Source of the DNA: an uncultured Actinomycetota bacterium | GTDB taxonomy: Bacteria; Actinomycetota; Actinomycetes; Propionibacteriales; Nocardioidaceae | Assembly: GCA_963811585.1 (NCBI GenBank) | Contig: CAWERR010000009.1 | Span: 150,282 to 214,281, forward strand | DNA length: 64,000 nucleotides | Direction: 5' to 3' | Shown here: positions 1 through 24,013 of the stretch, piece after piece | How positions within the stretch are numbered: the stretch's first letter is position 1 | Layout of the letters: each line of letters opens with the position of its first letter | The notes under the pieces: model-generated | Database searches by the model: none | What the model was told of the DNA's origin: nothing | What the model saw: only the letters and a program-made list of their open reading frames with translations | Translations under genes and position numbers: made by a program

Positions 1-88
1 TCAGGGTGCCGTCGTCGGTGCGGAGCCAATCCCCATCGGGATCACGGTCTGCGGCAGCGGCCAGCAGTCCGGGAATGGTGTCCGGCAT
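1..88 (-). CDS. partial CDS, 5' end only (continues beyond left edge); N-terminus reminiscent of AMP-dependent synthetase/ligase
   Basis: Minus-strand ATG at 88..86. MPDTIPGLLAAAADRDPDGDWLRTDDGTL reads to the window edge without a stop. Only 29 aa are visible, so the family is a guess. Confidence 0.3.
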   Translation of the reverse strand, partial: MPDTIPGLLAAAADRDPDGDWLRTDDGTL

Positions 89-335
89 GTCTGCAGTCTG
101 GCCGAGCCGCGCGACCCCCGGCAATGCAGACGGCGTTGGTATCAGGCGGGGCCTCTCTTGCTCCTGAAACCCAAAGCCAAGGAGGCAGTCATGTTCCCAC
201 CGAAACTCGGTCCACTCCTCGTGGGCAGCCGCAAGGACGACCAGGAGCGGGTACGTCGGCGGACCAAAGCGCGGCGCGGCACGAAGCCGTCGCGGCACGC
301 TCAGCCGGCACCGCGTCAGCCTGAGTAGCCATCAC

Positions 336-605
336 TCAGGCTGCCGCGGTCTTGCGCGGCCGACCTCTCGGTCGCTTGCGGGCGACCACAACTCCCCCGA
401 TGAACAGCTCTCCGCCCCAGACGCCCCAAGGCTCTCGCCTCTCGCGTGCGCCGGCCAGGCAGAGTTCACGGACCGGGCACTCGAGGCACAGGCTTTTGGC
501 GAGCTCGAGCTGACCGGGGCTCTCGGCGAACCACAGCTCGCCGTCGTTCTCGCGGCAGGGCAGACCCTGCGCTGTTGTGGGCAGCCCGATCGCGTGTGCG
601 CTCAC
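336..605 (-). CDS. whiB7: WhiB7-type WhiB-family transcription factor (Fe-S cluster, EPW motif, C-terminal AT-hook)
   Basis: 89 aa with a GTG start. Four Cys (C...CLEC-x5-C), EPWGVWGGELF, and the C-terminal KRPRGRPRK AT-hook, matching the remembered mycobacterial WhiB7 C-terminus. Confidence 0.85.
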   Translation of the reverse strand: MSAHAIGLPTTAQGLPCRENDGELWFAESPGQLELAKSLCLECPVRELCLAGARERREPWGVWGGELFIGGVVVARKRPRGRPRKTAAA

Positions 606-778
606 GCCACCCGACCCACAACCGGTCGGGACGCGTGGGTGACGTTGCGGTGCTGCGACCGAGCACGGCGGTCAGCCCGGAGGCGTCGACGGAGGGCGGC
701 ACCTGCGAAGTAAGAGCGGGCGCGCTCGCGGTGGTAGGAGTTTTCGGCTGATGCGAAGTGTTCGAAGGTGTTCAACAT
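602..778 (-). CDS. 58-codon upstream ORF (leader peptide candidate) translationally coupled to whiB7
   Basis: Below the ORF-track length cutoff. ATG at 778..776 is preceded by AGGAG (revcomp of ctcct at 786..790). Translation is MLNTFEHFASAENSYHRERARSYFAGAALRRRLRADRRARSQHRNVTHASRPVVGRVA. Its TGA (604..602) overlaps the whiB7 GTG (605..603) as GTGA. Confidence 0.45.
   Translation of the reverse strand: MLNTFEHFASAENSYHRERARSYFAGAALRRRLRADRRARSQHRNVTHASRPVVGRVA
610..630 (-). promoter_or_regulatory. 7-bp GC-rich hairpin immediately upstream of the whiB7 start, inside the uORF 3' end
   Basis: cccgacc-cacaacc-ggtcggg. It lies 5-25 nt upstream of the whiB7 GTG and could mask the initiation region unless the uORF is translated. 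Confidence 0.35.
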
Positions 779-948
779 CTCTGGCTCCTGATTGGCTTGA
801 CTCGATGACTTGAGCCTGCCGACCTAAGGTGCCGCTACACATGAGGACAATGCCTTATCTCGCCACGACTACGACCTCAGATGCCTTAGACCCAGGCGTA
901 GGACCGCGATCCACCGCATCGTGAGTCATGACGCTCGCGTCCAGCCCA

Positions 949-1668
949 TCACGTCGGCTCGACGAAGGTGGCCGTCTCGACCAGGCCGGAGAACAACTGG
1001 ACTCTCTTGCCCTCCCCAGTGCCGAAGACGAGGGCGCTGAGTATCAACAGCGATCCGTCGACGTCGAGGATCCAGTACCGGTCGACCACCGGCTCGCCGA
1101 GATCCCGGCCGAGGTCGTCGCCCGATTTCCAGATGTGCAGGGTGTCCTCGACGCACGTCTTGTAGTCGAGGTCGGCCGGTGTAGTCAGCTTGAGGTAGAG
1201 CCCGTCGTACCCGCCGACCGACACCGGGACAGGCTTGCTCGTGGTCGTCAGCTTCTGCGCTGCCAGCGCGGCAGCGACGTCCTCGGCGGTTGCGCCGACA
1301 GTGGAAGTTGTGCCGGAGGCCGAGCATGGCTCCTCGTAGACACCGTCGACTGCGTGGTACCCGATAACCCCACGGTTGTTCCAGATGAAGGGACCACCGC
1401 CGTCGAAGTTCTCCGGGACGTCGATGACGGCAAGGGGCGCTTCATTTCCCCCGGCGGCGGCGACCGCCCATCGGCCAGCCAGTATTCTCCGCCCGACGTC
1501 CCAGTTAGGGAGTACTTCGTAGTCGGGCTGTGCTGTGCTCCTGGTGGGCGTCTCGCCGTTCCCTGCCGGGTCGGTCCCTGTCTGGCCGTCGCTGGTGCAG
1601 GAGGCAAGCAGGACCACCGCGGCGGCAAGCGTTGCCGGGAGGGCGCGAGCCGTGATGATTCGGTTCAT
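949..1668 (-). CDS. putative secreted lipoprotein, unknown function
   Basis: Internal start MNRIITARALPATLAAAVVLLASC carries a signal peptide plus lipobox (LLAS-C). The longer 286-aa ORF upstream of it looks non-coding. Confidence 0.6.
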   Translation of the reverse strand: MNRIITARALPATLAAAVVLLASCTSDGQTGTDPAGNGETPTRSTAQPDYEVLPNWDVGRRILAGRWAVAAAGGNEAPLAVIDVPENFDGGGPFIWNNRGVIGYHAVDGVYEEPCSASGTTSTVGATAEDVAAALAAQKLTTTSKPVPVSVGGYDGLYLKLTTPADLDYKTCVEDTLHIWKSGDDLGRDLGEPVVDRYWILDVDGSLLILSALVFGTGEGKRVQLFSGLVETATFVEPT

Positions 1669-1723
1669 GATGATCTCCTTCGCGGCCGCCGCATGCGACC
1701 TTGTGATCCAGTGGCGCGCCGTC

Positions 1724-1767
1724 GGGTATCGGTGGCCCTCCGGCGCGGGTATCAGCCGGGTATCAGC
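1724..1767 (+). promoter_or_regulatory. three phased GGGTATC direct repeats (two perfect tandem 11-mers CGGGTATCAGC) in a divergent promoter region
   Basis: GGGTATC at 1724, 1747 and 1758 (spacings 23 and 11 nt). TTGACG follows at 1771-1776, GACAGT at 1796-1801, and the ATG of the SARP gene at 1808. Confidence 0.4.
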
Positions 1768-1807
1768 CCTGTTGACGCCCCCGCACGAGGGCGCGGACAG
1801 TGGAGCC

Positions 1808-4800
1808 ATGGGTATCGCCGTGCTCGGCCCGATCCGGGTCGACGGTCAGGTCAACGGGCTGAGCCCGAGGGACCGAGTGGTCTTGTCAGCGCTGGTCGTG
1901 AGAGCCGGCGAGCCGACCAGCACCGAGGCGCTGGCGGACGCGCTGTGGGGGGAGGAGCAGCCCGCCTCGTGGGCGAAGGTCGTTCATGGCTGCGTCGTAC
2001 GGCTGCGCAAGCGGCTGGGTGCGGCGGCCATCGAGTCGGGATCGTCGGGTTACCGCCTCACCTTGAGCGACGAAGAGCTGGACCATCGCCTGTTCGAGCG
2101 GCTGCTCGAGCGCGGGCGTGAGGCGCTTTCGGGTGGCGATCCGGAGCGGTCGTCATACCTGGTTCAGGAAGCCCTGGATCTGTGGCGCGGGCGGGTGCTG
2201 GTGGACCTGGAGGAGTGGGAGCCGGGGCGGGTCGAGGCCGAACGGCTCGAGGGTCTGCGGATGGATGCCGAGGAGCTGCGCGTGGAGGCCGAGACGCGCG
2301 CCGGGCACGCGCAGGCCGTGCTGGAGGAGGCACGAACGCTGGTCGCGAAGGCGCCGTTCCGGGAGCGGCGTTGGGCGTTGCTCGCCAGGGCACTGCACCA
2401 GGCGGGCCGCCAGGCGGAGGCCTTGGGCGCGCTCAAACGGGCTCGCGCGATGCTGGTCGACGAGCTCGGCCTGGATCCGGGCCGTGAGCTCGTGGAGCTC
2501 GAGCAGCTGTTGTTGCGGCAGGACCCTTCGTTGGCTCCGCCAGGGGAGAGGGAGGTCAGTGCTGACTGCCCCTATCGCGGGCTCCTGCCGTACGACGCTG
2601 CGGATGCCGACTCGTTCTTCGGTCGCGATGACGACGTCGGGGCGTGCCTGAGGCGGCTCAGGGACTCGGGTGTCCTGACGGTCATCGGGCCCTCGGGTAT
2701 CGGAAAGTCCTCACTGGTCCGGGCCGGTGTGATGGCAGCTCTCGTCCGCAGTGGGACGCCGGTACTGGTCACCACACCGGGGGCGCATCCGATGGACTCG
2801 ATCACCGGGTTGAAGGCCCGCGGCCGACAGACTCTTGTGGTCGACCAGGCCGAGGAGGCGGTCACGGTCTGCTCAGACTCCGCCGAACGGGAGCGGTACT
2901 TCGCGGCGCTGGCAGCCCATGTCGGCGCAGGCGGAGTGCTGATTCTCTCGCTGCGGGCGGACCACCTTGGCGACCTGGCGCCGTACCCGGATATCGCGCG
3001 CGTCCTCGAGGACGGCCTGTATCTGCTTGGTCCCATGAGCGAGCCGGACCTGCGCAGCGCGATCGAGGGCCCCGCCCGTCGAGCCGGCCTGCGGCTCGAG
3101 CCGGGCCTCGTCGACCTCCTGATCCGCGAGGTCGAGGGTGAGCCGGCTGCGCTGCCGATGCTCTCGCACGTGCTGCGCGAAACCTGGGAACGTCGCGAAG
3201 GCCCGACGCTGACCGTCGACGGATACCGCGCCACGGGGGGCATCCGATACGCCGTCTCCCAGTCGGCGGAGCTCCTGTACGACGCGATGGACGATTCCGA
3301 ACGCAGCCGGCTCCGTAGCCTGCTGCTCCGGCTGGTGATGCCCACCGAGGACGGCGACCCGGTGCGCGCCAGGGTGCCGCGCGCCAAGGTCGCCGCCGAC
3401 GACGCACACCAGCGACTCGTCGAGCAACTGGTGGAGGCTCGCCTGGTCAGCATCGACGGCGACACGGTCCAGATTGCCCACGAGGCGCTGGTACGGGTGT
3501 GGCCACGGTTGCGTGGCTGGCTCGACGACGACGTCGACGGTCAACGACTCTTCCGACATCTCGCCGGTGCAGCCGACGCCTGGGACGCCATGGGTCGACC
3601 GGACAGCGAGCTCTACCGCGGGACGAGGCTCGGCCGCACCCTGGAGTGGCGAGCACGCGCCGCCCCTGACTTGAACGCCACCGAGGACGCGTTCGTCGCT
3701 GCGTCCGTTGCCCTCTCGGAAGCCGAACTGCGCACCGCGGAGACCCGGATCGCCCGCGAACGCTCGGTCAACCGTCGACTGCGAAGCGCCTTGGCCGGAG
3801 TCGGCGTCCTGCTCGTGATCGCGCTGGTCGCAGGTGTCATCGCCGTACAGACGGCCGACCGCGCACAACGCGACCGGGACCGCGCCGAGCTTGCGTCCGT
3901 CCAGGCTGAGCGGGCGTCAGCGCGGGCCGAAGCAGCGGCGGACTTGGCGGACGCCAGGCGCGCCAGCGCCCAGGCACCCTTGCACGAGGACGTCACGACC
4001 GGGCTGCTACTCGCTGTCGCTGCACTCAACATTGACGCCACCCCGCAGGCCCGCGAGAACCTCGGCGCAGCCCTGACCCGCGCAGGGCCTTTGTCCGGGG
4101 TGCGTGACATCGGCGAGATGGCTGGGGCACCCGGCACGGCCTGGCTCGCATCGATGGCGGCGAGCTCGGACGGTGCCTGGGTAGCCGCTAGCTGGCCCAA
4201 CGGGCAAGGGGTGCTGCTCTTCGACGCCTCCACGCTGGCGCCCGTCGAGTTCGAGGACGGCACCTCCAGCCTTGCGGTCGCCTTCTCGCCGGACGGCAAG
4301 CAGCTGGCGGTCGCCCACAACCAATGGGTTCCGGAGGGCCGGCCGAGAGTCGACCTGCCCATCCGGCTGTACGACTTGCCGGGAGGCGCGCGGTCCGAAA
4401 GTCAGCTCGGCGGCCTGCCGCCGGACAGTACGGTCGAGTATTCCCTCGACTTCAGCCGGGACGGCAAGCGGATTGCGGCGGCCGTCCGGCAGTGGGACAG
4501 GTCGAGATTGGAGTGGAACCCTCGAGGACGGGCCGCGGTCTGGGACCTGGCCAACCCATCGCAGCCCTTGTTTAGTGAGCGCGTGCCGGACTTCGCAACT
4601 ACGGCCCTGAGTCCGAACGGTCGACTCCTCTACGTCCTGGTCCCGGGTGGCCGGCCACTGCGTGTCTACGACGTCGACTCTGGCCGCCTGATCCGTTCCA
4701 TCGACAACGCACCCCTCAAGGCCGCCGGAACGCAGGTGTCCGCGGAGATCGCTGGCGATCGGCCGGCGAACCTCCTCGACGTCAGCCCGGACGGCGCGAC

Positions 4801-6109
4801 GCTCGCCGTCGCGACCGGGAACCAGGTCCTGCGGTTCGACGCGGTGACCCTGGAGGTCCGCAGCCCAGCGCTGCGCGCCCACACGGCTGACGTCAGTGAG
4901 GTCGGCTTCTCCCACAACGGGCGACTCCTGGTCTCTGCTTCTGACGACGGGACCGCGATCGTCTGGGATGCCGCCTCGGGTGGCCTGCTTCATCGATTCG
5001 TCGGGCGCGGTGGTCTCCGCAATGCTGCGTTCAGCGCCGACGACCGGACCGTGTACACGACGGGGGGCGACGGGGCGATCTTGGCCTGGGACGTACGAGG
5101 GGCCAGCCGGCTACTCACTCTGGGGGAGGACACCAGTGGGATGGAGGAGCAGGACTACCTGGTGTCGCTGCCGGCGCCGGACGGCCACACAATCGCCCGG
5201 GTGGAATCGGGCAGATTGTGGTTCGAGGACGCCAGGACCGGCCGCAGAACCACGCGCCCGGTCCCCACCGGCGACACGAACTTCATCTGGTCGCCTGACG
5301 CGCGCTGGCTCTTGTCGAGCGGCGGCGACGAGTACCTGAAACTGTGGAACGCAGCGTCTGGCGCCCTCGCCGCCAAGAAGTTCGGCTACGGGCCGAGCGA
5401 AGTGCTGGCAGCCTTCAGCCCGGAGAGCGACAAGGTGTACGTGCGGGGCTCGGACTCGAGTCTGCGGACGTTGGACAGGGCGTCCCTAACACCGATGTAC
5501 GACGACGTCGAACTGGGCAGCCAGCCGACCGCCATCGTGCCCCACCCGGACGGCTCTGTCATCGCCCTCATGCACGAGGGCCAATTCCTTCGCGTGCAGC
5601 CCGAGACTGCGGAGATCCTCGAAAGCGAGCCGCCGGGACTGCTGTCGCCTTCGGACCAGCTAGGCGCCTTGTCTCCGGACGGGTCGCTGATGGCCACGTC
5701 GGACGTGAACTACAACGTGGGACTGCTCGATCTGGAGAGCCATGAATGGATCGGCCCGGACTCGCAAACGCGGACGGGTGACCTCACGTACGCCCCCGAC
5801 GGCAGCCAGTTCGCCACGCTCCAGCGGGAGCGAATCCGGCTCTGGGACGGTCGCACAGGCGAGTACCAGGCCAGCCTTCCCCTCCCCAGCCGGACCGCAC
5901 ACCTGTCGATCTCATACTTGCCCAACAGCAAGGGTCTCCTCCTCGCAGCCACTGACGGGCGCACGTGGGTTGTGGATACCCGCACGAACAGATGGGTGCA
6001 ACGCGCCTGCACATCAGCCGGCCGCAACCTCACGCAGGAGGAATGGAAAGAGTTCTTCCCCAACCGGCCGTACGACGTCACCTGCCCACAGTGGCCGGCC
6101 GGGACATGA
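1808..6109 (+). CDS. SARP (OmpR-type wHTH + BTAD) fused to a STAND P-loop NTPase, a hydrophobic helix and about 12-14 WD40 blades
   Basis: ATG at 1808 (MGIAVLGPIRVDG). SARP/BTAD signature through ...LGLDPGRELVELEQLLLRQD. Then CPYRGLLPYDAADADSFFGRDDDV and Walker A VIGPSGIGKSSLVRAG, followed by the helix LAGVGVLLVIALVAGVIAV. Repeated xFSPDGxxLA...WD blades run to the C-terminus. Confidence 0.85.
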   Translation: MGIAVLGPIRVDGQVNGLSPRDRVVLSALVVRAGEPTSTEALADALWGEEQPASWAKVVHGCVVRLRKRLGAAAIESGSSGYRLTLSDEELDHRLFERLLERGREALSGGDPERSSYLVQEALDLWRGRVLVDLEEWEPGRVEAERLEGLRMDAEELRVEAETRAGHAQAVLEEARTLVAKAPFRERRWALLARALHQAGRQAEALGALKRARAMLVDELGLDPGRELVELEQLLLRQDPSLAPPGEREVSADCPYRGLLPYDAADADSFFGRDDDVGACLRRLRDSGVLTVIGPSGIGKSSLVRAGVMAALVRSGTPVLVTTPGAHPMDSITGLKARGRQTLVVDQAEEAVTVCSDSAERERYFAALAAHVGAGGVLILSLRADHLGDLAPYPDIARVLEDGLYLLGPMSEPDLRSAIEGPARRAGLRLEPGLVDLLIREVEGEPAALPMLSHVLRETWERREGPTLTVDGYRATGGIRYAVSQSAELLYDAMDDSERSRLRSLLLRLVMPTEDGDPVRARVPRAKVAADDAHQRLVEQLVEARLVSIDGDTVQIAHEALVRVWPRLRGWLDDDVDGQRLFRHLAGAADAWDAMGRPDSELYRGTRLGRTLEWRARAAPDLNATEDAFVAASVALSEAELRTAETRIARERSVNRRLRSALAGVGVLLVIALVAGVIAVQTADRAQRDRDRAELASVQAERASARAEAAADLADARRASAQAPLHEDVTTGLLLAVAALNIDATPQARENLGAALTRAGPLSGVRDIGEMAGAPGTAWLASMAASSDGAWVAASWPNGQGVLLFDASTLAPVEFEDGTSSLAVAFSPDGKQLAVAHNQWVPEGRPRVDLPIRLYDLPGGARSESQLGGLPPDSTVEYSLDFSRDGKRIAAAVRQWDRSRLEWNPRGRAAVWDLANPSQPLFSERVPDFATTALSPNGRLLYVLVPGGRPLRVYDVDSGRLIRSIDNAPLKAAGTQVSAEIAGDRPANLLDVSPDGATLAVATGNQVLRFDAVTLEVRSPALRAHTADVSEVGFSHNGRLLVSASDDGTAIVWDAASGGLLHRFVGRGGLRNAAFSADDRTVYTTGGDGAILAWDVRGASRLLTLGEDTSGMEEQDYLVSLPAPDGHTIARVESGRLWFEDARTGRRTTRPVPTGDTNFIWSPDARWLLSSGGDEYLKLWNAASGALAAKKFGYGPSEVLAAFSPESDKVYVRGSDSSLRTLDRASLTPMYDDVELGSQPTAIVPHPDGSVIALMHEGQFLRVQPETAEILESEPPGLLSPSDQLGALSPDGSLMATSDVNYNVGLLDLESHEWIGPDSQTRTGDLTYAPDGSQFATLQRERIRLWDGRTGEYQASLPLPSRTAHLSISYLPNSKGLLLAATDGRTWVVDTRTNRWVQRACTSAGRNLTQEEWKEFFPNRPYDVTCPQWPAGT

Positions 6110-8859
6110 TGCCAAGCCCCCTGCTCGAGACGAAGTTCTATCTCCCGAGGTCGCGGCGTGGGCTGGTGTCGCGTTCGCGACTGATCGGGCGGCTTGACCG
6201 CGGGACCGAGTCGAAGTTGTTGCTCGTTTCCGCACCGGCCGGTTTCGGCAAGACGACTCTGCTCGCAGAGTGGCTCGCTGGGGAACCGACGAACCTCGGC
6301 GGTGAGTGGTCCGTCGCGTGGCTGTCGCTCGATCGGGGCGACAACGACTCCACCACGTTCTGGACCTACGTGATCGCTGCGCTGCGGACGGCGGCGCCCG
6401 GCGTCGGCGCGCAAGAGCTCGCACTTCTGCAGGAGCCTCAGCCGCCTCCGATCCAGCTGGTGCTTACCACGCTTCTCAACGACCTCGGCGCGTTGCCGAG
6501 CGACATCGTGCTGGTGCTCGACGACTACCACCTCGTCGACGCGCGCGAGGTGCAGGAGGCGATGGCTTTCCTGCTCGACCATGCACCTCCGCGGCTGCAC
6601 TTGGTGGTCGCCAGCCGCGCAGATCCCGCGTTGCCGCTGGCCCGGCTGCGGGCCCGCGGTGAGCTCGTCGAGATACGGGCTGCCGACCTGCGCTTCACGA
6701 CCGACGAGGCCGCGGCGTACCTCAACGAGATGATGGGCCTGCAGCTGGCGGCACCGGATGTGGCCGCGCTCGAAGGCCGCACCGAAGGGTGGATCGCCGC
6801 GCTTCAGCTGGCCGCGCTCTCCATGCAAGGCCGCGACGACGTCGCCGGCTTCATTGCCGGTTTCGCGGGCGACGACCGGTACGTCGTCGACTACCTGGTC
6901 GAGGAAGTCGTGCAGCGTCAGCCCGAGCAGGTGCAGACCTTCCTGCTGCAGACCGCCATCCTTGGCCGGCTGAGCGGTCCACTTTGTGAGGCCGTCACCG
7001 GCCAGGCTGACGCCAAAGCCATGCTCGAGGCGCTAGACCGGGGGAACTTGTTCCTGGTCCCGCTCGACGACCGCCGCCGGTGGTACCGCTACCACCAGCT
7101 CTTCGCAGATGTGCTGCATGCACGCCTGCAGGACGAGCAGCCCGAGCAGGTCCGGGAGCTGCACGGTCGCGCAAGCGTTTGGTATGACGAGAACGGCGAG
7201 CAGTCCGCAGCCATCCGGCACGCGCTGGCCGCCGAGGACTTCGAGCGAGCGGCCGACCTGGTGGAGCTGGCGATGCCGGCGACGCGGAGGAACAGGCAGG
7301 AGGCGACGCTGCGTGGCTGGCTCGAGATGCTGCCCGACGAAGTAGTCCGCGTGCGGCCCGTGCTGAGCATCACCTTCGTCGGCGCCTTGCTGTCCACGGG
7401 CGAAATCGCAGGCGTCGAGGCGCACCTTCAGGATGCGGAGCGTTGGCTGGACGAAACAGGCAACTTGCCCGTGGGGCCGACAGATTCGCCGACCGAGATG
7501 GTCGTCGTGGACGACATGGAGTTTCGCCGTCTTCCCGGTTCGGTCGCCGTTTATCGTGCCGCACTGGCTTTGCTGCTGGGCGATGCTGCCGCAACACTGA
7601 CCCACGCCCAGCGGGCTCTCGATCTTCTTCAGGCAGACGATCATCTCGGGCATGGAGCGGCCGCGGCACTGATCGGACTCGCGTCCTGGGGAAGCGGGGA
7701 TCTGGCAACAGCGCACGACGCGTATGCCGATTGCATAGCGAGCATGCGCCGAGCCGGACACCTATCCGACGTACTCGCATGCTCGATCACGCTCGCGGAC
7801 CTCCGGATCACCCAGGGCCGTCTCCGCGACGCGATGCGCGCCTACGAGCAGGCGTTGGAGCTCAACCCCGAGCAGGGCCAGCCAGTTCTCCGAGGAACAT
7901 CCGACATGTACGTCGGGATGAGTGCGCTCCACCGGGAGCGAAACGAGTTGGATGTCGCCAGAGAGTTACTGCTGCGAGTCGAGGAACTGGGCGAGCACAT
8001 CGGGATGCCGCAGAACCGTTATCGCTGGCGGGTCGCGATGGCTCGGATACGGGAGGCTGAAGGAGATTTCGGTGGCGCGGTCGACCTGCTCGACGAGGCG
8101 GAGCGAGCGTATGTAGGTGACTTCTCGCCCAACGTGCATCCGGTTCCAGCAGTGAGGGCACGTACGTGGATCGCGCAGGGAAGGGTTGATGACGCGCTCG
8201 GCTGGGCCCGTGAGCAGGGTCTGTCCATGGACGACGAGCTCAGCTACCTGCGCGAGTTCGCGCACGTCACCCTGGCGAGGGCGGTGTTGGCCCACGATGA
8301 GGGCAAACGCGCAGCGGCCGCCTCTGACGACGCGATTTCATTCTTGGAGCGACTCCTCGACGCAGCAGAGCATGGGGACAGGACGGGAAGCGTCATCGAG
8401 ATCCTGCTGCTGCAGGCGCTAGCGCATCACAGGCGAGGCGACATCCCGGCTGCGCTCGAGCCATTGGAACGCGCCTTGACGCTGGCCGAGCCGGAAGGCT
8501 ACGTCCGGATCGTTATTGACGAGGGCACACGCATGGCGATCCTGTTGAGAGCTGCCGCGGACCAGGGGATCGCCCCGAGCTATGTTCGTCGACTCTTGGT
8601 GGCGTTTGGCGAGGCTGATGACAGCCCGAGCACCAAGCAGGATCTGGTCGATCCACTGAGCGAACGCGAGCTTGACGTCCTCCGGCTTCTCGGGACCGAC
8701 CTGGGCGGCCCGGAGATCGCCCGCCAGCTCGTGCTGTCGTTGAACACCGTCCGAACTCACACCAAGAACATCTACGCCAAGCTCGGCGTGAACAACCGTC
8801 GCGAAGCGGTCCGCAGGGCCGGCGAGCTGGACCTGTTGTCGCGAACCCGCAACCGATAG
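6106..8859 (+). CDS. MalT/LAL-family LuxR transcriptional regulator (AAA/STAND ATPase + TPR-like region + C-terminal LuxR HTH)
   Basis: ATG at 6106 overlaps the upstream TGA (ATGA). Walker A LLVSAPAGFGKTTLLAEW. C-terminal LSERELDVLRLLGTDLGGPEIARQLVLSLNTVRTHTKNIYAKLGV. Confidence 0.85.
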   Translation: MMPSPLLETKFYLPRSRRGLVSRSRLIGRLDRGTESKLLLVSAPAGFGKTTLLAEWLAGEPTNLGGEWSVAWLSLDRGDNDSTTFWTYVIAALRTAAPGVGAQELALLQEPQPPPIQLVLTTLLNDLGALPSDIVLVLDDYHLVDAREVQEAMAFLLDHAPPRLHLVVASRADPALPLARLRARGELVEIRAADLRFTTDEAAAYLNEMMGLQLAAPDVAALEGRTEGWIAALQLAALSMQGRDDVAGFIAGFAGDDRYVVDYLVEEVVQRQPEQVQTFLLQTAILGRLSGPLCEAVTGQADAKAMLEALDRGNLFLVPLDDRRRWYRYHQLFADVLHARLQDEQPEQVRELHGRASVWYDENGEQSAAIRHALAAEDFERAADLVELAMPATRRNRQEATLRGWLEMLPDEVVRVRPVLSITFVGALLSTGEIAGVEAHLQDAERWLDETGNLPVGPTDSPTEMVVVDDMEFRRLPGSVAVYRAALALLLGDAAATLTHAQRALDLLQADDHLGHGAAAALIGLASWGSGDLATAHDAYADCIASMRRAGHLSDVLACSITLADLRITQGRLRDAMRAYEQALELNPEQGQPVLRGTSDMYVGMSALHRERNELDVARELLLRVEELGEHIGMPQNRYRWRVAMARIREAEGDFGGAVDLLDEAERAYVGDFSPNVHPVPAVRARTWIAQGRVDDALGWAREQGLSMDDELSYLREFAHVTLARAVLAHDEGKRAAAASDDAISFLERLLDAAEHGDRTGSVIEILLLQALAHHRRGDIPAALEPLERALTLAEPEGYVRIVIDEGTRMAILLRAAADQGIAPSYVRRLLVAFGEADDSPSTKQDLVDPLSERELDVLRLLGTDLGGPEIARQLVLSLNTVRTHTKNIYAKLGVNNRREAVRRAGELDLLSRTRNR

Positions 8860-8873
8860 CCGTCAGTCAGCCC

Positions 8874-9430
8874 TCATCGAACACGCTTCACGGGCAGGAT
8901 GGCCACGGCTCCGATGATGGCGCAGGTCCCGGCGACCGTGTACATGAGGCCGTAGCTGCCGTCGCCGATGGCGAGGATGGCGGGCGCGATTGCCGGTGCG
9001 ACGGAGAAGGGCAGCGCGCTGGCGATGTTGAACACGCCGAGATCCTTGGCTGCGCTGGCCGGGTCAGGCAGCACGTCGACCACGAGCGCCAGGTCGACGG
9101 CAACATAGGTGCCGAAGCCCAGGCCGCCGATGGCCATGCCAACGAGGAAGCCGTTGAAGTCGCTGGCGATGGCGGGCCCAGCCTCGACGACGTACGGTCG
9201 CTCATCTTGCCGAAGAACGGGTTGGCGACCATGGACACCAGAGCACCCGTGCCGGCGGCGAGGGACAAGCTGTTCGGTGCATCGTCGATCCCCACCAGGG
9301 AGTTGACCTTCAAGGCCAAGGTGACTAGCAGGGGCGCGAGGAACAGCAGGGAGGTGCTGATAACCGCCAACGTGTAGAGCGAGATGAAGCCCCATCCGAC
9401 CGGAGGTAGTGCGCGTGACTCTGGCTCCAC
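8874..9430 (-). pseudogene. MFS transporter remnant (internal deletion plus frameshift)
   Basis: The N-terminal MFS-like part (…FFGKMSDRT) is in the frame of ORF 8888..9430. The C-terminal MFS-like part (AGPAIASDFNGFLVGMAIGG...DLALVVDVLP...ILPVKRVR) is in the frame of ORF 8874..9545. The junction is near 9175-9195. Total length is about 185 codons against about 400+ expected. Confidence 0.65.
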
Positions 9431-9459
9431 TTCCAGCAGGGTAGCCAGCGGGCATTAGG

Positions 9460-10128
9460 TTGGCTCGTATGCGCATCGCGATTGTTGGCGGGCACGGACA
9501 AGTGGCCCGACCCCTCCACCCCCTCCTCGTCCGCGCCGGGCACACACCCGTTGCGCTGGTGCGAAAGGAGGACTACCGCTCCGAGCTTGAACGAATGGGC
9601 GCGGAGGTCCGACTGCTCGACATCGAGCGCGAGGATGCCACCGCTTTCGCCCAGGCGTTCGGCGGCTGTGACGGAGTCGTCTTCGCCGCTGGTGGCGGTC
9701 CCGACGGCAACAAGGAGCGCAAGCGCACGGTCGACCTGGAAGGCTCGCTGAAGTCCATCGCGGCAGCAAAGACAGTCGGCATCCGCCGGTTCGTGCAGGT
9801 GTCTGCCATCAACATGGACAAGCCTGTTCCCGCTGACGCCGGTGAGGTGTGGAGGGCGTACGTCGAAGCGAAGCGTGACGCCGATGCCGCCCTGCGCGAC
9901 AGCGGCCTGGACTGGACGATCATTCGACCGGGCCGTCTCACCGATGACCCGGGCACCGGCGCCGTCTCACTCGGCCCCGACCTGTCGCGGGGCGACGTAC
10001 CCCGCGCCGATGTTGCTGCAGTGCTAGCGGAGGTGGTGGGTTCTGAGGCCGCCATCGGCTGGCAGTGGGACCTGGTGACTGGCGATACGCCGATCACCGA
10101 AGCCGTTCAGCGGGCGGCCGCTCGGTGA
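9460..10128 (+). CDS. NAD(P)H-binding SDR-like protein (NmrA/atypical SDR type)
   Basis: MRIAIVGGHGQVARPL Rossmann-type N-terminus and typical length. The start is 9460 or 9469. Confidence 0.7.
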   Translation: MARMRIAIVGGHGQVARPLHPLLVRAGHTPVALVRKEDYRSELERMGAEVRLLDIEREDATAFAQAFGGCDGVVFAAGGGPDGNKERKRTVDLEGSLKSIAAAKTVGIRRFVQVSAINMDKPVPADAGEVWRAYVEAKRDADAALRDSGLDWTIIRPGRLTDDPGTGAVSLGPDLSRGDVPRADVAAVLAEVVGSEAAIGWQWDLVTGDTPITEAVQRAAAR

Positions 10129-10157
10129 GTGCGACGGACCAGGGTTAGCGTGGCTGC

Positions 10158-10736
10158 GTGAGCATCGTGGTGAAGCCCGCGACCACGGCACGGTTCAACG
10201 ACGTGGCGACCATGGTCGGGCCGAAGAACCCCGACTCCTCCGTGTGCTGGTGCCTCAGCCATCGAGTCGACGCCAAGACCAACCGTGAGCTTGTCGGACG
10301 TGCGCGAGGCGAGTACGTGAGAAAGCTCTGCAGACGCAAGGTCTCGCCGGGCGTCTTGGCCTACGAGGATGACGTGGTCGTGGGCTGGGCCGCCGTCGCA
10401 CCTCGATCCGAGCTGCCCTTCGCGCGGTCGACGAAGATTCCGCACGTCGACGACCTGCCCGTCTGGTCGGTGTGGTGCATCCGAGTACGTCCCGGCCACC
10501 GCGGCAAAGGCATCTCCCACAATCTGCTCGAAGGCGCCGTGGAGTTCGCGCGGTCGAAAGGTGCAAGGGCTGTCGAGGGCTATCCGGTAGACAACAAGGG
10601 CAAGAAGGTCGACCTCACGATGGCGTACGTCGGGACCCGCACAGTCTTCGAGAAAGCGGGCTTCACCAAGGCCGCTGACACCGACTCGGTGTCAGGTGGA
10701 TTCCCTCGGGTGATCATGCGGTTGGACCTGCGCTGA
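10158..10736 (+). CDS. GNAT family N-acetyltransferase
   Basis: 192 aa with a GNAT core-like RVRPGHRGKGISHNLLEGAVEFARSKGARAVEGYP. Confidence 0.7.
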   Translation: MSIVVKPATTARFNDVATMVGPKNPDSSVCWCLSHRVDAKTNRELVGRARGEYVRKLCRRKVSPGVLAYEDDVVVGWAAVAPRSELPFARSTKIPHVDDLPVWSVWCIRVRPGHRGKGISHNLLEGAVEFARSKGARAVEGYPVDNKGKKVDLTMAYVGTRTVFEKAGFTKAADTDSVSGGFPRVIMRLDLR

Positions 10737-10759
10737 CCCTGCTGAATGCCTGGCCGTAG

Positions 10760-11164
10760 TCAGCCCGGGTCCCCGCTCGCAGCCAAGGCCAGGACAGTGT
10801 TGACACACGACGCCGCGATGAGCGGGACGCCGACGCGCTTGGGCACCTTCCCGGTCAACGTGAGCAGTGTGGCCGTGAGTGTGTCCGACGCGTGGATGAG
10901 GGGGGCTTCGGCGAGTGCGTTCCGACGCTCCGGTCCGTCCTTGACCAACAGCTGGCGGCCGAGCAGCACGGTCCTGATCCCGAACAGTCGGAAGGCGTAC
11001 ACGGCCGCAGGGCTCTGGGCCGCGGGACCTTCGATCCGGCGGATCAGGATGTTCGGTGCCACCAGCCCGATGGTTCCGAACGTCAGTCGCGTCACGCCTA
11101 GCGCGACCCGTGCCCGATTGGCGACTTCGTCGGTCGCCGTACGTCTGGTCAGTCTCATTGTCAT
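10760..11164 (-). CDS. small hydrophobic membrane protein, unknown function
   Basis: Only the last 134 codons of ORF 10760..11938 look coding (MTMRLTRRTATDEV...). Several hydrophobic segments are present. The upstream part is antisense to the OYE gene. Confidence 0.5.
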   Translation of the reverse strand: MTMRLTRRTATDEVANRARVALGVTRLTFGTIGLVAPNILIRRIEGPAAQSPAAVYAFRLFGIRTVLLGRQLLVKDGPERRNALAEAPLIHASDTLTATLLTLTGKVPKRVGVPLIAASCVNTVLALAASGDPG

Positions 11165-11260
11165 AGGGAGCCCCTGGATCTGGCGCACTCTGCTAGCGCG
11201 CTTGCGCATCATTTCATGATTGACGTTGCGGAAATCGGCGGCCGGTGAGAGTGTCCCGGC

Positions 11261-12634
11261 ATGGCCACCGCAGGCCCGTCCGCCGACGACCCGATCTTTA
11301 CGCCGTTGAGGTTCCCCAGCGGGCTCACGATCAAGAACCGAGTGCTGCGTAGCAACATCTCTGGCCGCATCGACAACTATGACGGTTCCGGCACCCAGGC
11401 CCGCGTCAACTGGGAGGAGCAGTTCGCCCGGGGCGGCGTCGGAGCGGTGCTGTCCGCGCACGTTCCCATCCACGTCCGTGGGCGGGTGCTGCCGAACTAC
11501 GCGCTCATCGACGACGACGATAAGGTGCCTTTTTGGCGAGTGGTGGGGGAGCGGGTTCATGCGCACGGGTGCGCGTTTCTGCTGCAGTTGAGCCATAGCG
11601 GCCGCCAGCGCGACATCGGTGGCGTCGAGAACGCCGCGAACATCGCCGTCAGCTCCACCAGCAAGCCGGACCCGGTGCACGGCCTGCCGTCTCAAGCCAT
11701 GACCCAGGACGAGATTGCCGATGTCGTCGCCCGGTTTGGCCACGGTGCCCGTCGTGCCCGGGAGGCGGGTCTGGACGGAGTTGAGCTGCATGCGTGCAAC
11801 GGCTACCTGTTCACCCAGTTCCTCTCCTCCGCGATCAACGACCGCACTGACGGGTACGGCGGGTCCCTGGAGAACCGTGCTCGCTTCCTGCTCGAGGTGA
11901 TAGCCGCGATCCGCCGCGAGGCGGGTGCGGACTTCCACCTACAGGTCAAGATGAGCGCGGTGGACCACGGGAACGCGGTCTTCCCGTGGAGCGCCAAGGG
12001 CAACACGCTGGAAGAGTCCGTCCAGGTGTTCAAGTGGGCGGAGGAGGCCGGTGCCCACGCCGTACACGTCTCCACCGGCAACTTCTTTCCGCATCCGCTG
12101 AACCCGGCCGGCGACTTGACCCCCGGCGACGTGATCGGCACCTACGACACCATGCTCTCGTCGGGCAACAAGACTCTGCGCAACTATGCGCTGTGGCGGT
12201 TCAGGCCGACGCGGCCGCTGATGCGGTGGGTGTGGCAGCGCACGGTGCCCGACAACCCCGAAGGCCAGCTGCTGCCGACAGCAGCCGAGGTCAAGCGCAA
12301 CCTGTCGATCCCGGTGATCGTCACCGGCGGCTTCCAGACGGCGTCGGTGGTCCGGAAGGCACTTCGTGATGGTCAGTGTGACGCGGTCAGCATCGCTCGG
12401 CCGCTCATGGCCAACCCTGACCTGGTGCACCAGTGGGCGGCGGGCGTGGACCGTCCGGAGCGGCCTTGCAGCTACTGCAACCTGTGCCTGTTCCACGCCC
12501 CCGAGGACCCACTTGGTTGCTATGACATACGCCGTTTCGACAACGACCATGACGCCATGATCAGACAGATCATGTCCATCTACCGACCAGACGGCTGGAC
12601 TCCGCGGTCGCCAGACCAGCCCACCGAGCCCTGA
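11261..12634 (+). CDS. NADH:flavin oxidoreductase, Old Yellow Enzyme / 2,4-dienoyl-CoA reductase-like family
   Basis: 457 aa. Motifs [33 protein letters not shown] and VIVTGGF are typical of OYE-like TIM barrels. Confidence 0.8.
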
Positions 12635-12765
12635 CCGAGCAACCGGAGTTCGGCCGAGCATTCGTCGAGCAGCTTCCCCGCGTCGCCAAGCCGTGCGCCC
12701 ACGCAGTCGCCGTCCGGTGCTTCGGAGTTGCGATGACCTGCGGCTGACGAAATCGGTGTTCTGGT

Positions 12766-12817
12766 GGGCGGCTCAACGACTCTCGCCCTTTCAGCGGGTG
12801 GCTCAACGACTCTCGCC
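12766..12817. repeat. 22-nt direct repeat (GGG[C/T]GGCTCAACGACTCTCGCC) x2 with 30-nt period
   Basis: Copies at 12766-12787 and 12796-12817 match at 21 of 22 positions. They lie in the gap between the OYE gene and a small minus-strand gene. Confidence 0.7.
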
Positions 12818-12910
12818 GGGGAGACGAATACGACACCTTCAAGCGTCAGCAGCTTGATGCCAAGTAGCCGCGCCAACACCGAGGTCTCGACGACGAAGCC
12901 CTGCGAGAGA

Positions 12911-13096
12911 TCATCTGCGCGAACGGGCTGCGCTCCCAGCACCGGTGGACCCACCACTGCGATGCGACGATTGGCCGCCTCCGCTGCCGTACGCGTCCAA
13001 CCTGCGCGACGCCTGCTGCGTCGCGACCTTGATCTGCGCATATCGCTCACGTCCCGCCTTGCTTCCCAGCACGTAGCCGACGCCAAACACCGCCAT
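12911..13096 (-). CDS. small YtxH-like protein
   Basis: MAVFGVGYVLGSKAGRERYAQIKVATQQASRRLDAYG.... It is the last gene of a three-gene minus-strand set. Confidence 0.45.
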   Translation of the reverse strand: MAVFGVGYVLGSKAGRERYAQIKVATQQASRRLDAYGSGGGQSSHRSGGSTGAGSAARSRR

Positions 13097-13107
13097 GGTC
13101 GCGAGTT

Positions 13108-13278
13108 TCACGCGTCGGAGTTCCTGTTTCGAACCGCAGACACGGCCGCGCTTACCAACGTGACGGCAACCATGGACCCCGCGGCTGTCAGGCCAGACCT
13201 GACTGCGGATGCTGGCTTTCCACTGGTCACTGGCCCGACCAGCTTCTCCCACTTGGACTTTCGGTGAAACAGCTTCAT
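13108..13278 (-). CDS. small membrane protein (one TM helix)
   Basis: MKLFHRKSKWEKLVGPVTSGKPASAVRSGLTAAGSMVAVTLVSAAVSAV.... It starts 12 nt after the stop of the upstream coiled-coil gene. Confidence 0.45.
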   Translation of the reverse strand: MKLFHRKSKWEKLVGPVTSGKPASAVRSGLTAAGSMVAVTLVSAAVSAVRNRNSDA

Positions 13279-13289
13279 GACAGTTCCTC

Positions 13290-14252
13290 TCAACGCGCTC
13301 GTCGCAATGCCGTGACCAATGCCGCCTTCGACATGGTTGACCTGCCAGGTATGTCCTTGGCCTGGGCCCGCTTCATGAGCTCCTGACGAGACAGGTTCTC
13401 CAGCGTTGCCGGCCCGCTCGACCTCCCCTTGGCCCGCCCACCGGACCTGCTCTTTGCCTGCGGTCCCGACTCTCTCGACTTCGTGACGCGAGGCCGGGTG
13501 GCGCTGGACGTCTTCGCGGCCGATGCTCCACTCGGCCTTTGCTGTGCCTGCTTGGCGACGGCGTCTACGCCCGCCGCCTCACGCTGGGCGTGCGCAGAGA
13601 GGTTCTCCGCCTCATGGTGAGCCTGGTCAGCGGCGGCCTGTGCCGCCGCGGTGGCCTCGTCCGCGAGCCTGCGCGCTTCGGCGAGCTGTGCAGTCGCGAT
13701 GCTCAGTTGGCCCTGCGCTTTTGCCTGCGCGGCCTGCGCTTCTTCGCGCGCCTTCTGCGCGCGCTCTTGCGCGTCCGCCTCTTCGCGAGCGATGACCTTG
13801 TCGGCTCGCGCTTGTGCTTGTTGCCGCGCCTCTTCGACCTTCGTCTCCGCGGCCGCTCGAGCCTCGGCGACACGATCCTTGACGTGCTGGTCCTGCTCGC
13901 GGCGAACCTCGGTCACGCGCGATTTGCTCTGTCGTGCGGTCTCCTTGGCATGCTCCGCCAGTTCTTTCGCTTCTTCGGCGGCCTGAATCGCTCGAGCCTC
14001 AGCCTCGCGAGCCTGCTCCGTGGCGACGTGGGCACGTTGGATGCGTAGCTCCACGGAGTCGCCGATGATGGGCAACGAGTCCTTGATCGACGCTCCAGCG
14101 CTGCGCAACGAATCCATGGCGCCGCCGTTGGAGTCGGCGCCGCCAGTCGGGTTCAGGGCGCGGGCCAACAGCCACGATGTATTGCGCGGCAGGTCCTTCA
14201 CCCCCGTCGCCAACACGGATGTGACACGGCTTCGCGATCGCTTGTTCGGCAT
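13290..14252 (-). CDS. long Ala/Glu/Gln/Arg-rich coiled-coil protein with a C-terminal Rho_N/SAP-like motif
   Basis: Start MPNKRSRS. About 200 aa are low-complexity helical (AEEAKELAEHAKETARQSK...). The C-terminus is LSRQELMKRAQAKDIPGRSTMSKAALVTALRRA. Confidence 0.6.
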   Translation of the reverse strand: MPNKRSRSRVTSVLATGVKDLPRNTSWLLARALNPTGGADSNGGAMDSLRSAGASIKDSLPIIGDSVELRIQRAHVATEQAREAEARAIQAAEEAKELAEHAKETARQSKSRVTEVRREQDQHVKDRVAEARAAAETKVEEARQQAQARADKVIAREEADAQERAQKAREEAQAAQAKAQGQLSIATAQLAEARRLADEATAAAQAAADQAHHEAENLSAHAQREAAGVDAVAKQAQQRPSGASAAKTSSATRPRVTKSRESGPQAKSRSGGRAKGRSSGPATLENLSRQELMKRAQAKDIPGRSTMSKAALVTALRRAR

Positions 14253-14363
14253 CAGTTCTCCCTCCCTGGCACGCCAACGTGCGGCGGCCATGTCCTCGGC
14301 TCGCTACGTACCCAGATGCTGGAACTGGTAACGCAACCGACGACATCGAGCGGCCACCGGCCC

Positions 14364-14717
14364 CTAGCGGTGCTCCACCACTGCGAGCTGGAGCTGGGCA
14401 GCAACCTCTTCCGCACACTCCTCCGCTGACCTTGCGCTCGTATCGACCTCAGCTGCGTAGTGCATGCCGTCGTGGATGTCCCCGGCCTGCCGTACCGCCC
14501 AGCCGACGGGACGCTCCTCGGGCCGCCCCGCCTCCCTGTCAGCACACCAGCGGGGGTGCCCAGTAGGGACATCAAGAAAACGCTCGGTCGGCCTCCACGA
14601 GGACCGCTGGAACCCGCAGCCGACGTTGGAGCTCTTTCGCCAGGCTCGTCTTGCCCGACGATGAGGGCCAGAAAGCAAGATCACGAGAGGCGGCGACACC
14701 CCTGATTTCGTCGACAT
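14364..14717 (-). pseudogene. chloramphenicol phosphotransferase-like (CPT) P-loop kinase remnant
   Basis: PLVILLSGP is in one frame, SSSGKTSLAKELQRRLRVPAVLVEADRAF in another (ORF 14572..14886), and the C-terminal HDGMHYAAEVDTSARSAEECAEEVAAQL is back in the first frame. About 117 codons remain against about 180 expected. Confidence 0.55.
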
Positions 14718-14818
14718 CGCGACACGGTAGCCATCGCGGAACTCGCTTGACCACGGGGTACCACGCGGAAAGAATCCGCGGACCGATGAATCCGGCCCGA
14801 GGCGGTGTCAGTTCAGGC

Positions 14819-16502: not shown

Positions 16503-16528
16503 GTGCCACCGAAGAAGCACCAGGTCAG

Positions 16529-16601
16529 TGGGCCCCGTGGGACTCGAACCCACAACCCGCGGATTAAAAGTCCGCTGCTCTGCCAATTGAGCTAGAGGCC
16601 C
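16529..16601 (-). tRNA. tRNA-Lys (anticodon UUU), no encoded CCA
   Basis: The hand-folded cloverleaf runs GGGCCTC-TA-GCTC-AATTGGCA-GAGC-A-GCGGA-CTTTTAA-TCCGC-GGGTT-GTGGG-TTCGAGT-CCCAC-GGGGCCC-A. Confidence 0.9.
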
Positions 16602-23337: not shown

Positions 23338-23955
23338 GTGCCCTTCCGTTTTCGCCCCACGGACACGACGTTCTACGATCTCTTCGCCGATTCGGCCAAG
23401 AACCTTGTTGTCGGGGCAGAACTGCTCGCCGAGATGCTCCCCGTCGACAGTGACCGTAAGACCATTGCAGCCCGCATGCGCGAGGCCGAGCACAACGGAG
23501 ACGAGACCACCCACGCCATCGTGCGCCGGGTCAACACGACGTTCGTGACGCCGTTTGACCGCGAAGACATCTACCGCCTCTCAGCCGCCCTCGACGACGT
23601 CATGGACTTCATGGAGGAAGCCGTCGACCTCGTCATCTTGTATGAGATCGACGAGCTTCCCAGCGAGCTCGCCAACCAAGTCGAAGTGCTGCAGCGGTCG
23701 GCCGAGCTGACTGCCGAGGCGATGCCGCGGTTGCGCACCATGCGCAACCTCGAGGAGTACTGGATCGAGATCAACCGCCTCGAGAATGATGGTGACAAGT
23801 CCTATCGCCGCATCGTGGCGAAGCTGTTCAACGGCCAGTACGACGCCCTGACGGTTCTCAAGTTCAAGGACGTCGTTGATTCGCTCGAGGCGGCCATTGA
23901 CGCCTTCGAGAAGGTGGCCAACGTCGTCGAGCAGATCGCCGTCAAGGAGTCCTAG
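23338..23955 (+). CDS. DUF47 (PhoU-like, YkaA/PitR type) phosphate-transport accessory protein
   Basis: GTG start. FYDLFADSAKNLVVGAELLAEML and TPFDREDIYRLSAALDDVMD are typical, and it sits directly upstream of pit. Confidence 0.8.
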   Translation: MPFRFRPTDTTFYDLFADSAKNLVVGAELLAEMLPVDSDRKTIAARMREAEHNGDETTHAIVRRVNTTFVTPFDREDIYRLSAALDDVMDFMEEAVDLVILYEIDELPSELANQVEVLQRSAELTAEAMPRLRTMRNLEEYWIEINRLENDGDKSYRRIVAKLFNGQYDALTVLKFKDVVDSLEAAIDAFEKVANVVEQIAVKES

Positions 23956-24013
23956 GGATGACCTTCCGGTCAGGTAGGTCATCGTCGCGCGCGCACTCCC
24001 TCGAGGGCGGCCA

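Follow-up and report, generated by a model that had tools for sequence, protein, structure and literature searches.

A SARP-nSTAND1-WD40 regulator with a predicted membrane span, its divergent lipoprotein gene, and a lineage-specific overlap with a LAL gene in an uncultured member of the Nocardioidaceae

Two overlapping genes for large regulators

The stretch of DNA analyzed here, which we call the window, comprises 64,000 nucleotides from an uncultured actinomycetote of the family Nocardioidaceae (GenBank assembly GCA_963811585.1, contig CAWERR010000009.1, positions 150,282 to 214,281 of the forward strand); positions below are those of the window unless another locus is named. Two large genes overlap on its plus strand. 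Gene 1 (1808 to 6109; ATG at 1808, TGA at 6107 to 6109) encodes a protein of 1,433 amino acids that combines a SARP module, a STAND nucleoside triphosphatase (NTPase), and WD40 repeats. Gene 2 (6106 to 8859; ATG at 6106) encodes a MalT-type LAL regulator of 917 amino acids, which is also the product called by the public annotation. GC content at third codon positions is coding-like in both (0.83 for gene 1 and 0.80 for gene 2). Divergent from gene 1, on the minus strand, lies a gene for a lipoprotein of 239 amino acids (949 to 1668).

An earlier note on this DNA had described the two genes as a translationally coupled pair: a SARP/BTAD module on a STAND NTPase with a characteristic entry motif, followed by two propellers' worth of WD40 blades, and then a MalT-like STAND ATPase carrying an HTH (helix-turn-helix) domain of the LuxR kind. 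We confirmed both reading frames, their ATGA overlap at 6106 to 6109, and each of these domain assignments; the further idea that the two proteins form one device fared less well, as the conservation of the pair makes clear.

Domains were identified with Pfam and NCBIfam models, structures were predicted with AlphaFold2 (AF2) and compared by Foldseek, and defense families were sought with PADLOC. We collected 77 loci with gene 1 homologs (38 to 95% identity) from a scan with one genome per species; their hosts are Nocardioides, other Nocardioidaceae, Marmoricola, Knoellia, Oryzobacter, and Cryobacterium, and several genomes have two to four copies. One of these loci, L005, comes from a sister genome. 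Its gene 1 ortholog is 95% identical to that of the window, with which it is syntenic at 90 to 93% nucleotide identity over positions 1 to 14741, and it served as the reference for the junction comparison and for the ratio of nonsynonymous to synonymous substitution rates (dN/dS).

Domain content and distribution of gene 1

The N terminus of gene 1 has the two elements by which SARPs are defined, and its product counts among them. A winged HTH (wHTH) domain, Trans_reg_C, occupies residues 17 to 73 (nucleotides 1856 to 2026; 27.4 bits against a cutoff of 26.2), and a BTAD domain (PF03704), matched over the whole length of the model, occupies residues 91 to 235 (nucleotides 2078 to 2512; E = 2.6e-34). 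Among known structures, residues 4 to 246 match EmbR (2fez; E = 3e-33), and the EmbR and AfsR structures match residues 4 to 282 (E = 3e-33 to 1e-29).

The NTPase that follows is, by profile match, a full-length nSTAND1 domain (PF20703; residues 255 to 599, nucleotides 2570 to 3604; 347.5 bits, E = 1.9e-103, model positions 1 to 378 of 379). The match begins at CPYRGLLPY, the entry motif of the earlier note, and the Walker A (GPSGIGKSS) and Walker B (LVVDQAEE) motifs are intact; GPSGxGKSS and LVVDQxEE are invariant in the 15 aligned homologs from which we read residue conservation. This is not the ordinary NB-ARC of AfsR-type regulators, a possibility that the earlier note had raised against itself: the NCBIfam AfsR model matches residues 4 to 300 only, at 143 bits against a cutoff of 1,430, and gene 1 lacks the combination of NB-ARC and TPR by which that family is recognized.

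WD40 matches with 14 "SPDG"-type blade motifs lie beyond the nSTAND1 domain. The AF2 model of residues 641 to 1433 (mean predicted local distance difference test [pLDDT], 82) finds its best structural matches in tandem 7+7 propellers (2ymu, Apaf-1, Aip1, and Utp21). From the WD40 matches, the blade motifs, and this model, we place two seven-bladed propellers at about 4091 to 5977. A helical linker connects them to the preceding hydrophobic segment, described below, and a helical cap with two invariant cysteines (C1401 and C1426) closes the C terminus. Relative to L005, dN/dS is 0.14 for gene 1 and 0.18 for gene 2, so both are under purifying selection. Within gene 1, the WD40 region has a higher ratio (0.19) than the other parts (0.08 to 0.10), and it is also the least conserved part of the protein among the 15 homologs.

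Gene 1 belongs to a large family. More than 120 full-length homologs have at least 60% identity, and residues 1 to 680 can be aligned with no fewer than 150 clusters at 50% identity. One metagenome-assembled genome carries at least four paralogs (L040, two copies in L043, and L058), some about 7 kb apart; L023/L044/L070 and L030/L059/L077 are further sets of paralogs. Within the 64-kb window itself there is no second copy of gene 1 or gene 2. Family members are labeled in databases as "nSTAND1 domain-containing NTPase" or "SARP family transcriptional activator/WD40 repeat protein"; the domain combination is thus already visible in annotation. We found no study of this architecture in the open-access literature, where we looked for SARP/BTAD with WD40 and for nSTAND1, and a look-up of contigs encoding the exact gene 1 product returned no record.

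A predicted membrane segment and a divergent lipoprotein gene

Between the NTPase and the propellers of gene 1 lies a single hydrophobic segment, predicted to be a transmembrane helix (residues 660 to 682, nucleotides 3785 to 3853). It consists of about 23 uncharged residues, reaches a Kyte-Doolittle 19-residue mean of 2.92, and is kept in all 15 aligned homologs. The basic stretch RERSVNRRLR precedes it, which fits the positive-inside rule, and the part of the protein that would then lie outside has just two cysteines, both invariant. In the AF2 fragment model, a long helix is followed by the two propellers. Gene 1 is accordingly predicted to be a single-pass membrane protein with its N terminus inside and its C terminus outside.

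The product of the divergent gene has a signal peptide with an LASC lipobox, a low-complexity linker, and a domain of about 170 residues with two invariant cysteines. It has no Pfam match. Its AF2 model has a pLDDT of 84.5, but the Foldseek matches, to the Apa, LpqN, PsbP, and DcrB folds, are only weak (E of about 1e-3; template modeling scores of 0.3 to 0.5), and we therefore make no functional assignment. In 50 of the 77 gene 1 loci, tblastn (E ≤ 1e-8) located a homolog of the lipoprotein in the equivalent divergent position. In a separate, crude scan for open reading frames (ORFs), 46 of 76 loci had a divergent ORF with a lipobox, those of L004, L007, L016, and L025 being without recognizable homology. 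Gene 1 paralogs that share a genome each have their own lipoprotein gene. The lipoprotein gene is the conserved partner of gene 1 and probably its target. It also evolves fast: its dN/dS relative to L005 is 0.53, and lipoprotein partners are 27 to 60% identical where their regulators are 55 to 79% identical.

Three GGTATC boxes and a covarying, predicted recognition helix

The intergenic region between the lipoprotein gene and gene 1 is 139 bp long and contains three direct GGGTATC heptamers (plus strand; 1724 to 1730, 1747 to 1753, and 1758 to 1764), which we regard as a predicted SARP operator. The pattern GGTATCN5GGTATC occurs once in the 64-kb window, against 0.02 occurrences expected. When we compared the promoters of 78 family loci, 76 had the three-box GGTATC architecture; in the family consensus, three (c/g)GGTATC heptamers are located at −46, −24, and −13 relative to TTGACG. 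Distances between the boxes are 23 and 11 bp in the window; at most homologous loci they are 22 and 11 bp. The published rule for SARP promoters puts repeats at distances of 11 or 22 bp and the 3′ one 8 bp away from the −10 element (PMC10936776), and the predicted operator of the gene 1 family would fit this geometry.

On the lipoprotein side, a candidate −10-like hexamer, CACTGG (1708 to 1713, minus strand), lies 10 nucleotides downstream of the nearest heptamer (GATACCC, 1730 to 1724). In the family consensus, the corresponding hexamer, cACAAC, begins 8 nucleotides past the heptamer, or 10 nucleotides if the hexamer is counted so that its most conserved A falls at position 2. For comparison, the −10 element of afsS is CACTGT (PMC10936776).

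On the gene 1 side, putative promoter elements span 1772 to 1801 (plus strand): TTGACG at 1772 to 1777, a spacer of 18 nucleotides (17 in the family), and GACAGT at 1796 to 1801. The last of these ends 6 nucleotides before the ATG at 1808, and 6 to 7 nucleotides before the start codon across the family, which implies a leaderless gene 1 mRNA. The positions of these elements are conserved in 76 of the 78 loci, and TTGAC stands 35 to 36 nucleotides before the start codon in 72. A generic scan of 1500 to 9600 for sigma-70 promoters and terminators found nothing above background and did not flag the gene 1 elements.

As a separate observation, a near-palindrome, GTCGACAGTCGA, lies at 1793 to 1806 and recurs at the same position in 76 loci. 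It overlaps the −10-like element of the gene 1 family and could be part of the promoter or discriminator, or a second operator.

Variation in the boxes is matched by variation in the SARP domain. Of about 650 protein columns, residue 60 gives the strongest covariation with the base 5′ of the middle box (normalized mutual information, 0.76), and residue 64 is in the top five; for box position 4, the strongest is residue 56. The predicted recognition helix, SWAKVVHGCVVRLRK, contains all three. Paralogs in the same genome carry different, matched variants of box and helix, and the same pairings recur across genomes: GGGTATC occurs with KVVHGC (His60), CGGTGTC or CGGTAAC with TW(T/P)KVVQG, and RRMTATC with KVVYGCVW (Tyr60/Trp64). 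Statistics of this kind are inflated by shared ancestry; that the top covarying columns are nevertheless clustered in one helix argues for direct readout of the boxes by this part of the protein.

Gene 2 and the history of the junction

As for gene 2, it has AAA_16, MalT winged-helix, TPR_MalT (229.9 bits, E = 6.5e-68), and GerE HTH domains, and the Escherichia coli MalT structure 8bob (MalT NOD) matches it with an E value of 6e-59. With a P-loop NTPase, a MalT-type TPR sensor, and a C-terminal LuxR HTH, it falls within the LAL/MalT family. It is not a MalT ortholog, because its score (422 bits) is below the NCBIfam MalT equivalog cutoff of 537; there are also no maltose genes nearby.

We examined relatives of gene 2 at 80 metagenomic loci (L084 to L163; 66 to 73% identity) and in six individual look-ups (L078 to L083). 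Their common gene order is the LAL gene, a gene for a protein of 91 to 98 amino acids, a gene for a DUF4386 membrane protein, and, beyond these, a convergent gene for a major facilitator superfamily (MFS) transporter. At the 56 loci with enough downstream DNA, the small protein of about 98 amino acids, which has no Pfam match, is kept in 50 and DUF4386 in 51, and an MFS gene is commonly nearby; the six look-ups have the same order. A SARP module is fused to the LAL or directly upstream of it in 27 of 60 loci (about 45%). The fusions, of about 1,190 amino acids (P0151 to P0154 and others; L080:7648-11220), keep the C-terminal GerE domain and therefore have two DNA-binding domains in one protein. 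We considered a common origin for the fusion SARPs and the SARP of gene 1 and rejected it: the two are 37% identical and have different recognition helices.

The gene 1/gene 2 junction reads gggacATGATGcc; the ATG at 6106 overlaps the gene 1 stop codon by 4 nucleotides (ATGA), and a second ATG, at 6109, overlaps it by 1 nucleotide and is the orthologous gene 2 start codon. Adjacency of the two genes is exceptional in both families. A full LAL gene lies downstream of gene 1 at 1 of the 77 gene 1 loci, that of the sister genome L005, and none was found downstream of the 79% identical ortholog in L003 or at any of the remaining loci. Among 69 gene 1 loci there is no conserved downstream gene at all, the largest recurrent matches being isolated GerE domains on either strand. 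From the side of gene 2, a gene 1-like nSTAND1 or WD40 neighbor was seen at 0 of the 80 loci, 20 of which come with 4.3 kb or more of DNA upstream, and at 0 of the six further look-ups.

The comparison with L005 indicates how the overlap arose. There, 109 nucleotides separate the gene 1 TGA from the LAL ATG, and this spacer contains the LAL's own Shine-Dalgarno sequence (caggagacggtgATG). The 3′ end of the spacer matches the native upstream sequence of a LAL homolog in an unrelated context (GGAGACGGTG, L079), from which we infer that the L005 spacer is ancestral and that the overlap in the window is derived by a 109-nucleotide deletion. The deletion lies between two GTGA repeats.

Other parts of the LAL cassette have also been lost. 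Behind gene 2, the window retains a remnant of the MFS transporter gene (8874 to 9545, minus strand), from which an internal stretch of about 686 bp is missing in comparison with L005, where the gene is intact (419 amino acids, L005:17184-18443) and its product is 79 to 82% identical to the MFS proteins beside other LALs. No remnants of the small-protein and DUF4386 genes were found in the window or in L005. The LAL gene of L005 itself has a +1 insertion at L005:15231-15238, orthologous to about position 6930 of the window (GCAGCGTA versus GCAG-GTG), outside any homopolymer run; it splits the gene into ORFs of 301 and 700 amino acids and could be either a genuine frameshift or an error of long-read assembly. 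The cassette is thus decaying in both the window and the sister genome. Gene 2 is probably still functional in the window genome, given the purifying selection seen between it and L005. Since it has no Shine-Dalgarno sequence of its own, it most likely depends on the gene 1 transcript and on termination-reinitiation.

Taken at face value, the overlap had suggested to the earlier note a hard-wired, stoichiometric operon of two switches. The pair is not kept as neighbors in related genomes, however, and that suggestion does not survive the locus counts and the 109-nucleotide spacer of L005: the pairing of gene 1 and gene 2 is a chance arrangement of recent date, limited to the window genome and its sister, rather than a designed two-input device.

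Proposed mechanism and alternatives

We think it likely that gene 1 and gene 2 are two unrelated regulators that have come to be adjacent, gene 1 being a membrane-spanning SARP/STAND activator of the lipoprotein gene and gene 2 an ordinary LAL in an accidental operon. The SARP module and the nSTAND1 switch of gene 1 would be cytoplasmic and joined through one transmembrane helix to a double WD40 propeller outside the membrane. An envelope or extracellular cue would act on the propellers, possibly together with the co-encoded lipoprotein, and would promote nucleotide-dependent oligomerization of the cytoplasmic part. The SARP domains would next be arrayed along the three GGTATC repeats of the intergenic region, switching on the lipoprotein promoter, in which a weak −10-like hexamer is 8 to 10 nucleotides from the nearest repeat; such binding may also tune the leaderless promoter of gene 1, which has a good −35 element downstream of the boxes. 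It would be physically sensible for a membrane-tethered factor to act on an adjacent gene. Gene 2 arrived in the common ancestor of the two sister genomes within a LAL/small-protein/DUF4386/MFS cassette that has since been eroding. The 109-nucleotide, lineage-specific deletion removed the LAL's Shine-Dalgarno sequence and created the ATGA overlap, and gene 2 is now probably expressed by read-through and reinitiation from the gene 1 message.

For the gene 1 family as a whole, we tentatively suggest, with rather less confidence, a transmembrane STAND (NLR-like) receptor: an external propeller sensor, an nSTAND1 domain that oligomerizes, and a SARP that drives the lipoprotein gene, with paralogs insulated from one another by the code that links operator and recognition helix. 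In Apaf-1, MalT, and AfsR, the sensor auto-inhibits the NTPase by direct contact. If sensor and NTPase do lie on opposite sides of the membrane, auto-inhibition of this kind could not apply; activation would then proceed by ligand-driven clustering or through the transmembrane and linker helices.

Several observations weigh against this account of gene 1 and gene 2. The assignment of the membrane span and of the propellers to the outside draws on hydropathy, charge bias, and the cysteine pattern. Distant members of the family (38 to 46% whole-protein identity) keep the boxes but have no divergent lipoprotein gene in crude gene calls. The distal box spacing in the window deviates by 1 bp from the 22 bp found elsewhere, and the −10-like hexamer of the lipoprotein gene is a poor one (CACTGG; consensus, cACAAC) at a distance of 8 to 10 nucleotides, according to the limits set for the repeat. 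Because box and helix descend together, some of their covariation is due to shared ancestry. Lastly, gene 2 is intact and under purifying selection, which leaves room for a lineage-specific functional link with gene 1.

A first alternative concerns the biological role only and is compatible with the mechanism outlined above: the gene 1 family could be the surface arm of a conflict or immunity system, concerned with phage or competitor sensing or with kin recognition, in which the propellers would pick up a foreign surface cue and the response would be to induce a fast-evolving protective or exclusion lipoprotein instead of killing. The definition of nSTAND1 comes from predicted counter-invader systems (PMC8195603), and at least four paralogs, each with its own operator variant, can share a genome; the relatively low conservation of the WD40 region and the fast evolution of the lipoprotein would also suit such a role. 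The lipoprotein's dN/dS of 0.53 equally fits relaxed constraint, however, and in the window we found no killing effector, no PADLOC defense family for gene 1, and no defense-island context, so we consider this role unlikely.

An alternative that we hold to be more doubtful still is that the hydrophobic segment does not span the membrane and that gene 1 is a soluble STAND regulator, whose cytoplasmic propellers auto-inhibit it until a cytosolic ligand binds. AfsR and MalT, as described, are treated as soluble cytoplasmic proteins, the propellers of gene 1 structurally resemble those of Apaf-1, and the AF2 helix has low confidence (pLDDT 39 to 57 for the first 40 residues of the fragment). The length and hydropathy of the uncharged segment, its conservation in all aligned homologs, and the basic cluster on its N-terminal side argue otherwise, as does the nature of the conserved partner, an exported lipoprotein.

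Least probable is that gene 1 and gene 2 form a dedicated, stoichiometric STAND pair acting as a two-input sensor for a nearby cluster: the 4-nucleotide overlap is real, both genes are intact and under purifying selection, and SARP and LAL combinations recur in nearly half of the close relatives of gene 2, yet the conservation data (1 of 77 loci on one side, 0 of 80 and 0 of 6 on the other), the L005 spacer with its Shine-Dalgarno sequence, the +1 frameshift in the L005 LAL, the dissimilar fusion SARPs, and the lack of a nearby cluster largely refute it.

Relation to known regulators

Returning to gene 1 as a probable membrane-spanning activator, we find close counterparts in the large SARPs of the AfsR type (Streptomyces coelicolor AfsR, PolY), with which it shares an N-terminal OmpR-type wHTH and BTAD, a P-loop STAND NTPase, a repeat sensor, and target-like direct repeats at 11 or 22 bp. 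It differs from them in that its NTPase is nSTAND1 rather than NB-ARC, its sensor is a double WD40 propeller rather than TPR, it has a conserved predicted transmembrane helix, and its context is a single divergent lipoprotein gene rather than antibiotic regulation. A 2024 review divides SARPs into small, medium, large (NB-ARC plus TPR), and SARP-LAL classes, with no WD40 or transmembrane class (PMC10972967). Gene 1 is in our view a SARP/STAND regulator of a new architectural type, predicted to span the membrane and to have a lipoprotein gene as its conserved, probable target.

Like the nSTAND1 NTPases of conflict systems, gene 1 has a full-length nSTAND1 match and a C-terminal repeat sensor, but at its N terminus a transcription activator takes the place of the death-like adaptor or the enzymatic effector. 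The paper that defined nSTAND1 does not mention BTAD, SARP, or wHTH (Kaur, Iyer, Burroughs, and Aravind 2021, eLife 10:e70394; PMC8195603). As for the likeness to NLR/Avs-type sensors proposed in the earlier note, the N-terminal module of gene 1 is a transcription activator, and gene 1 has neither a killing or signaling effector domain nor a PADLOC family that would place it among anti-phage STAND systems.

ToxR and CadC have an N-terminal cytoplasmic OmpR-type wHTH, a single transmembrane helix, an external sensor, and local target genes. The predicted layout of gene 1 (wHTH, single transmembrane helix, external sensor, local target gene), drawn from hydropathy and positive-inside bias, would resemble theirs. 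Gene 1 adds, between the DNA-binding domain and the membrane, a BTAD domain and a STAND NTPase of about 350 amino acids; its putative external sensor is about 700 amino acids long, and we detected no homology to ToxR/CadC beyond the wHTH.

Gene 2 has the domains of MalT and other LALs, but its subfamily is linked to the small protein, DUF4386, and MFS genes rather than to maltose genes. About 45% of its close relatives resemble the SARP-LALs (PimR, FilR, SanG) in having an N-terminal SARP and a C-terminal LAL. Described SARP-LALs of the PimR class have no LuxR HTH (PMC10972967), whereas the fusions of about 1,190 amino acids keep GerE; in the window, SARP and LAL are encoded by separate, unrelated genes.

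The coupled pair is a lineage-specific accident of gene order, and it shows that a stop/start overlap alone is no sign of a functional module. The gene 1 family is of broader interest: it is large, centered on the Nocardioidaceae, and present in up to four or more copies per genome, and it unites features that are mostly investigated separately: SARP-type activation, a STAND clade known so far from predicted conflict systems, and a layout predicted to span the membrane, with the WD40 sensor outside. Since it comes with a predicted operator, one target gene that is likewise predicted, and naturally occurring variants of specificity, it should be tractable for studying how a STAND switch might be operated from across a membrane and what keeps paralogous SARPs free of cross-talk.

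Neighboring genes

The earlier note had suggested that the two regulators control a nearby cluster and had seen an AMP-ligase-like gene at the left edge of the window. Pfam scans of 20 neighboring ORFs (positions 2 to 31275) revealed no biosynthetic cluster, only miscellaneous and housekeeping genes. No AMP-ligase-like gene was found: the ORF at the left edge (2 to 328) has no Pfam match, and the gene at 336 to 605 (minus strand), just beyond the lipoprotein gene, is WhiB-like (PF02467; E = 2e-13) and is conserved in the sister genome L005 only.

Other neighbors encode a NAD-binding protein and GNAT, OYE, PNPOx, and MFS proteins, followed by housekeeping genes. The stretch from 23338 to 31275 contains genes for a PhoU-like protein and a PitA phosphate transporter, a NUDIX/histidine phosphatase, polyphosphate kinase, a double-GNAT (MshD-like) protein, and GlnR; this housekeeping block indicates that the region belongs to the core chromosome rather than to an island. 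An Rfam scan identified only a tRNA. A tRNA-Lys(ttt) gene lies at 16528 to 16601 (minus strand), about 1.8 kb from a gene encoding a DUF222-domain protein (18391 to 19806, minus strand).

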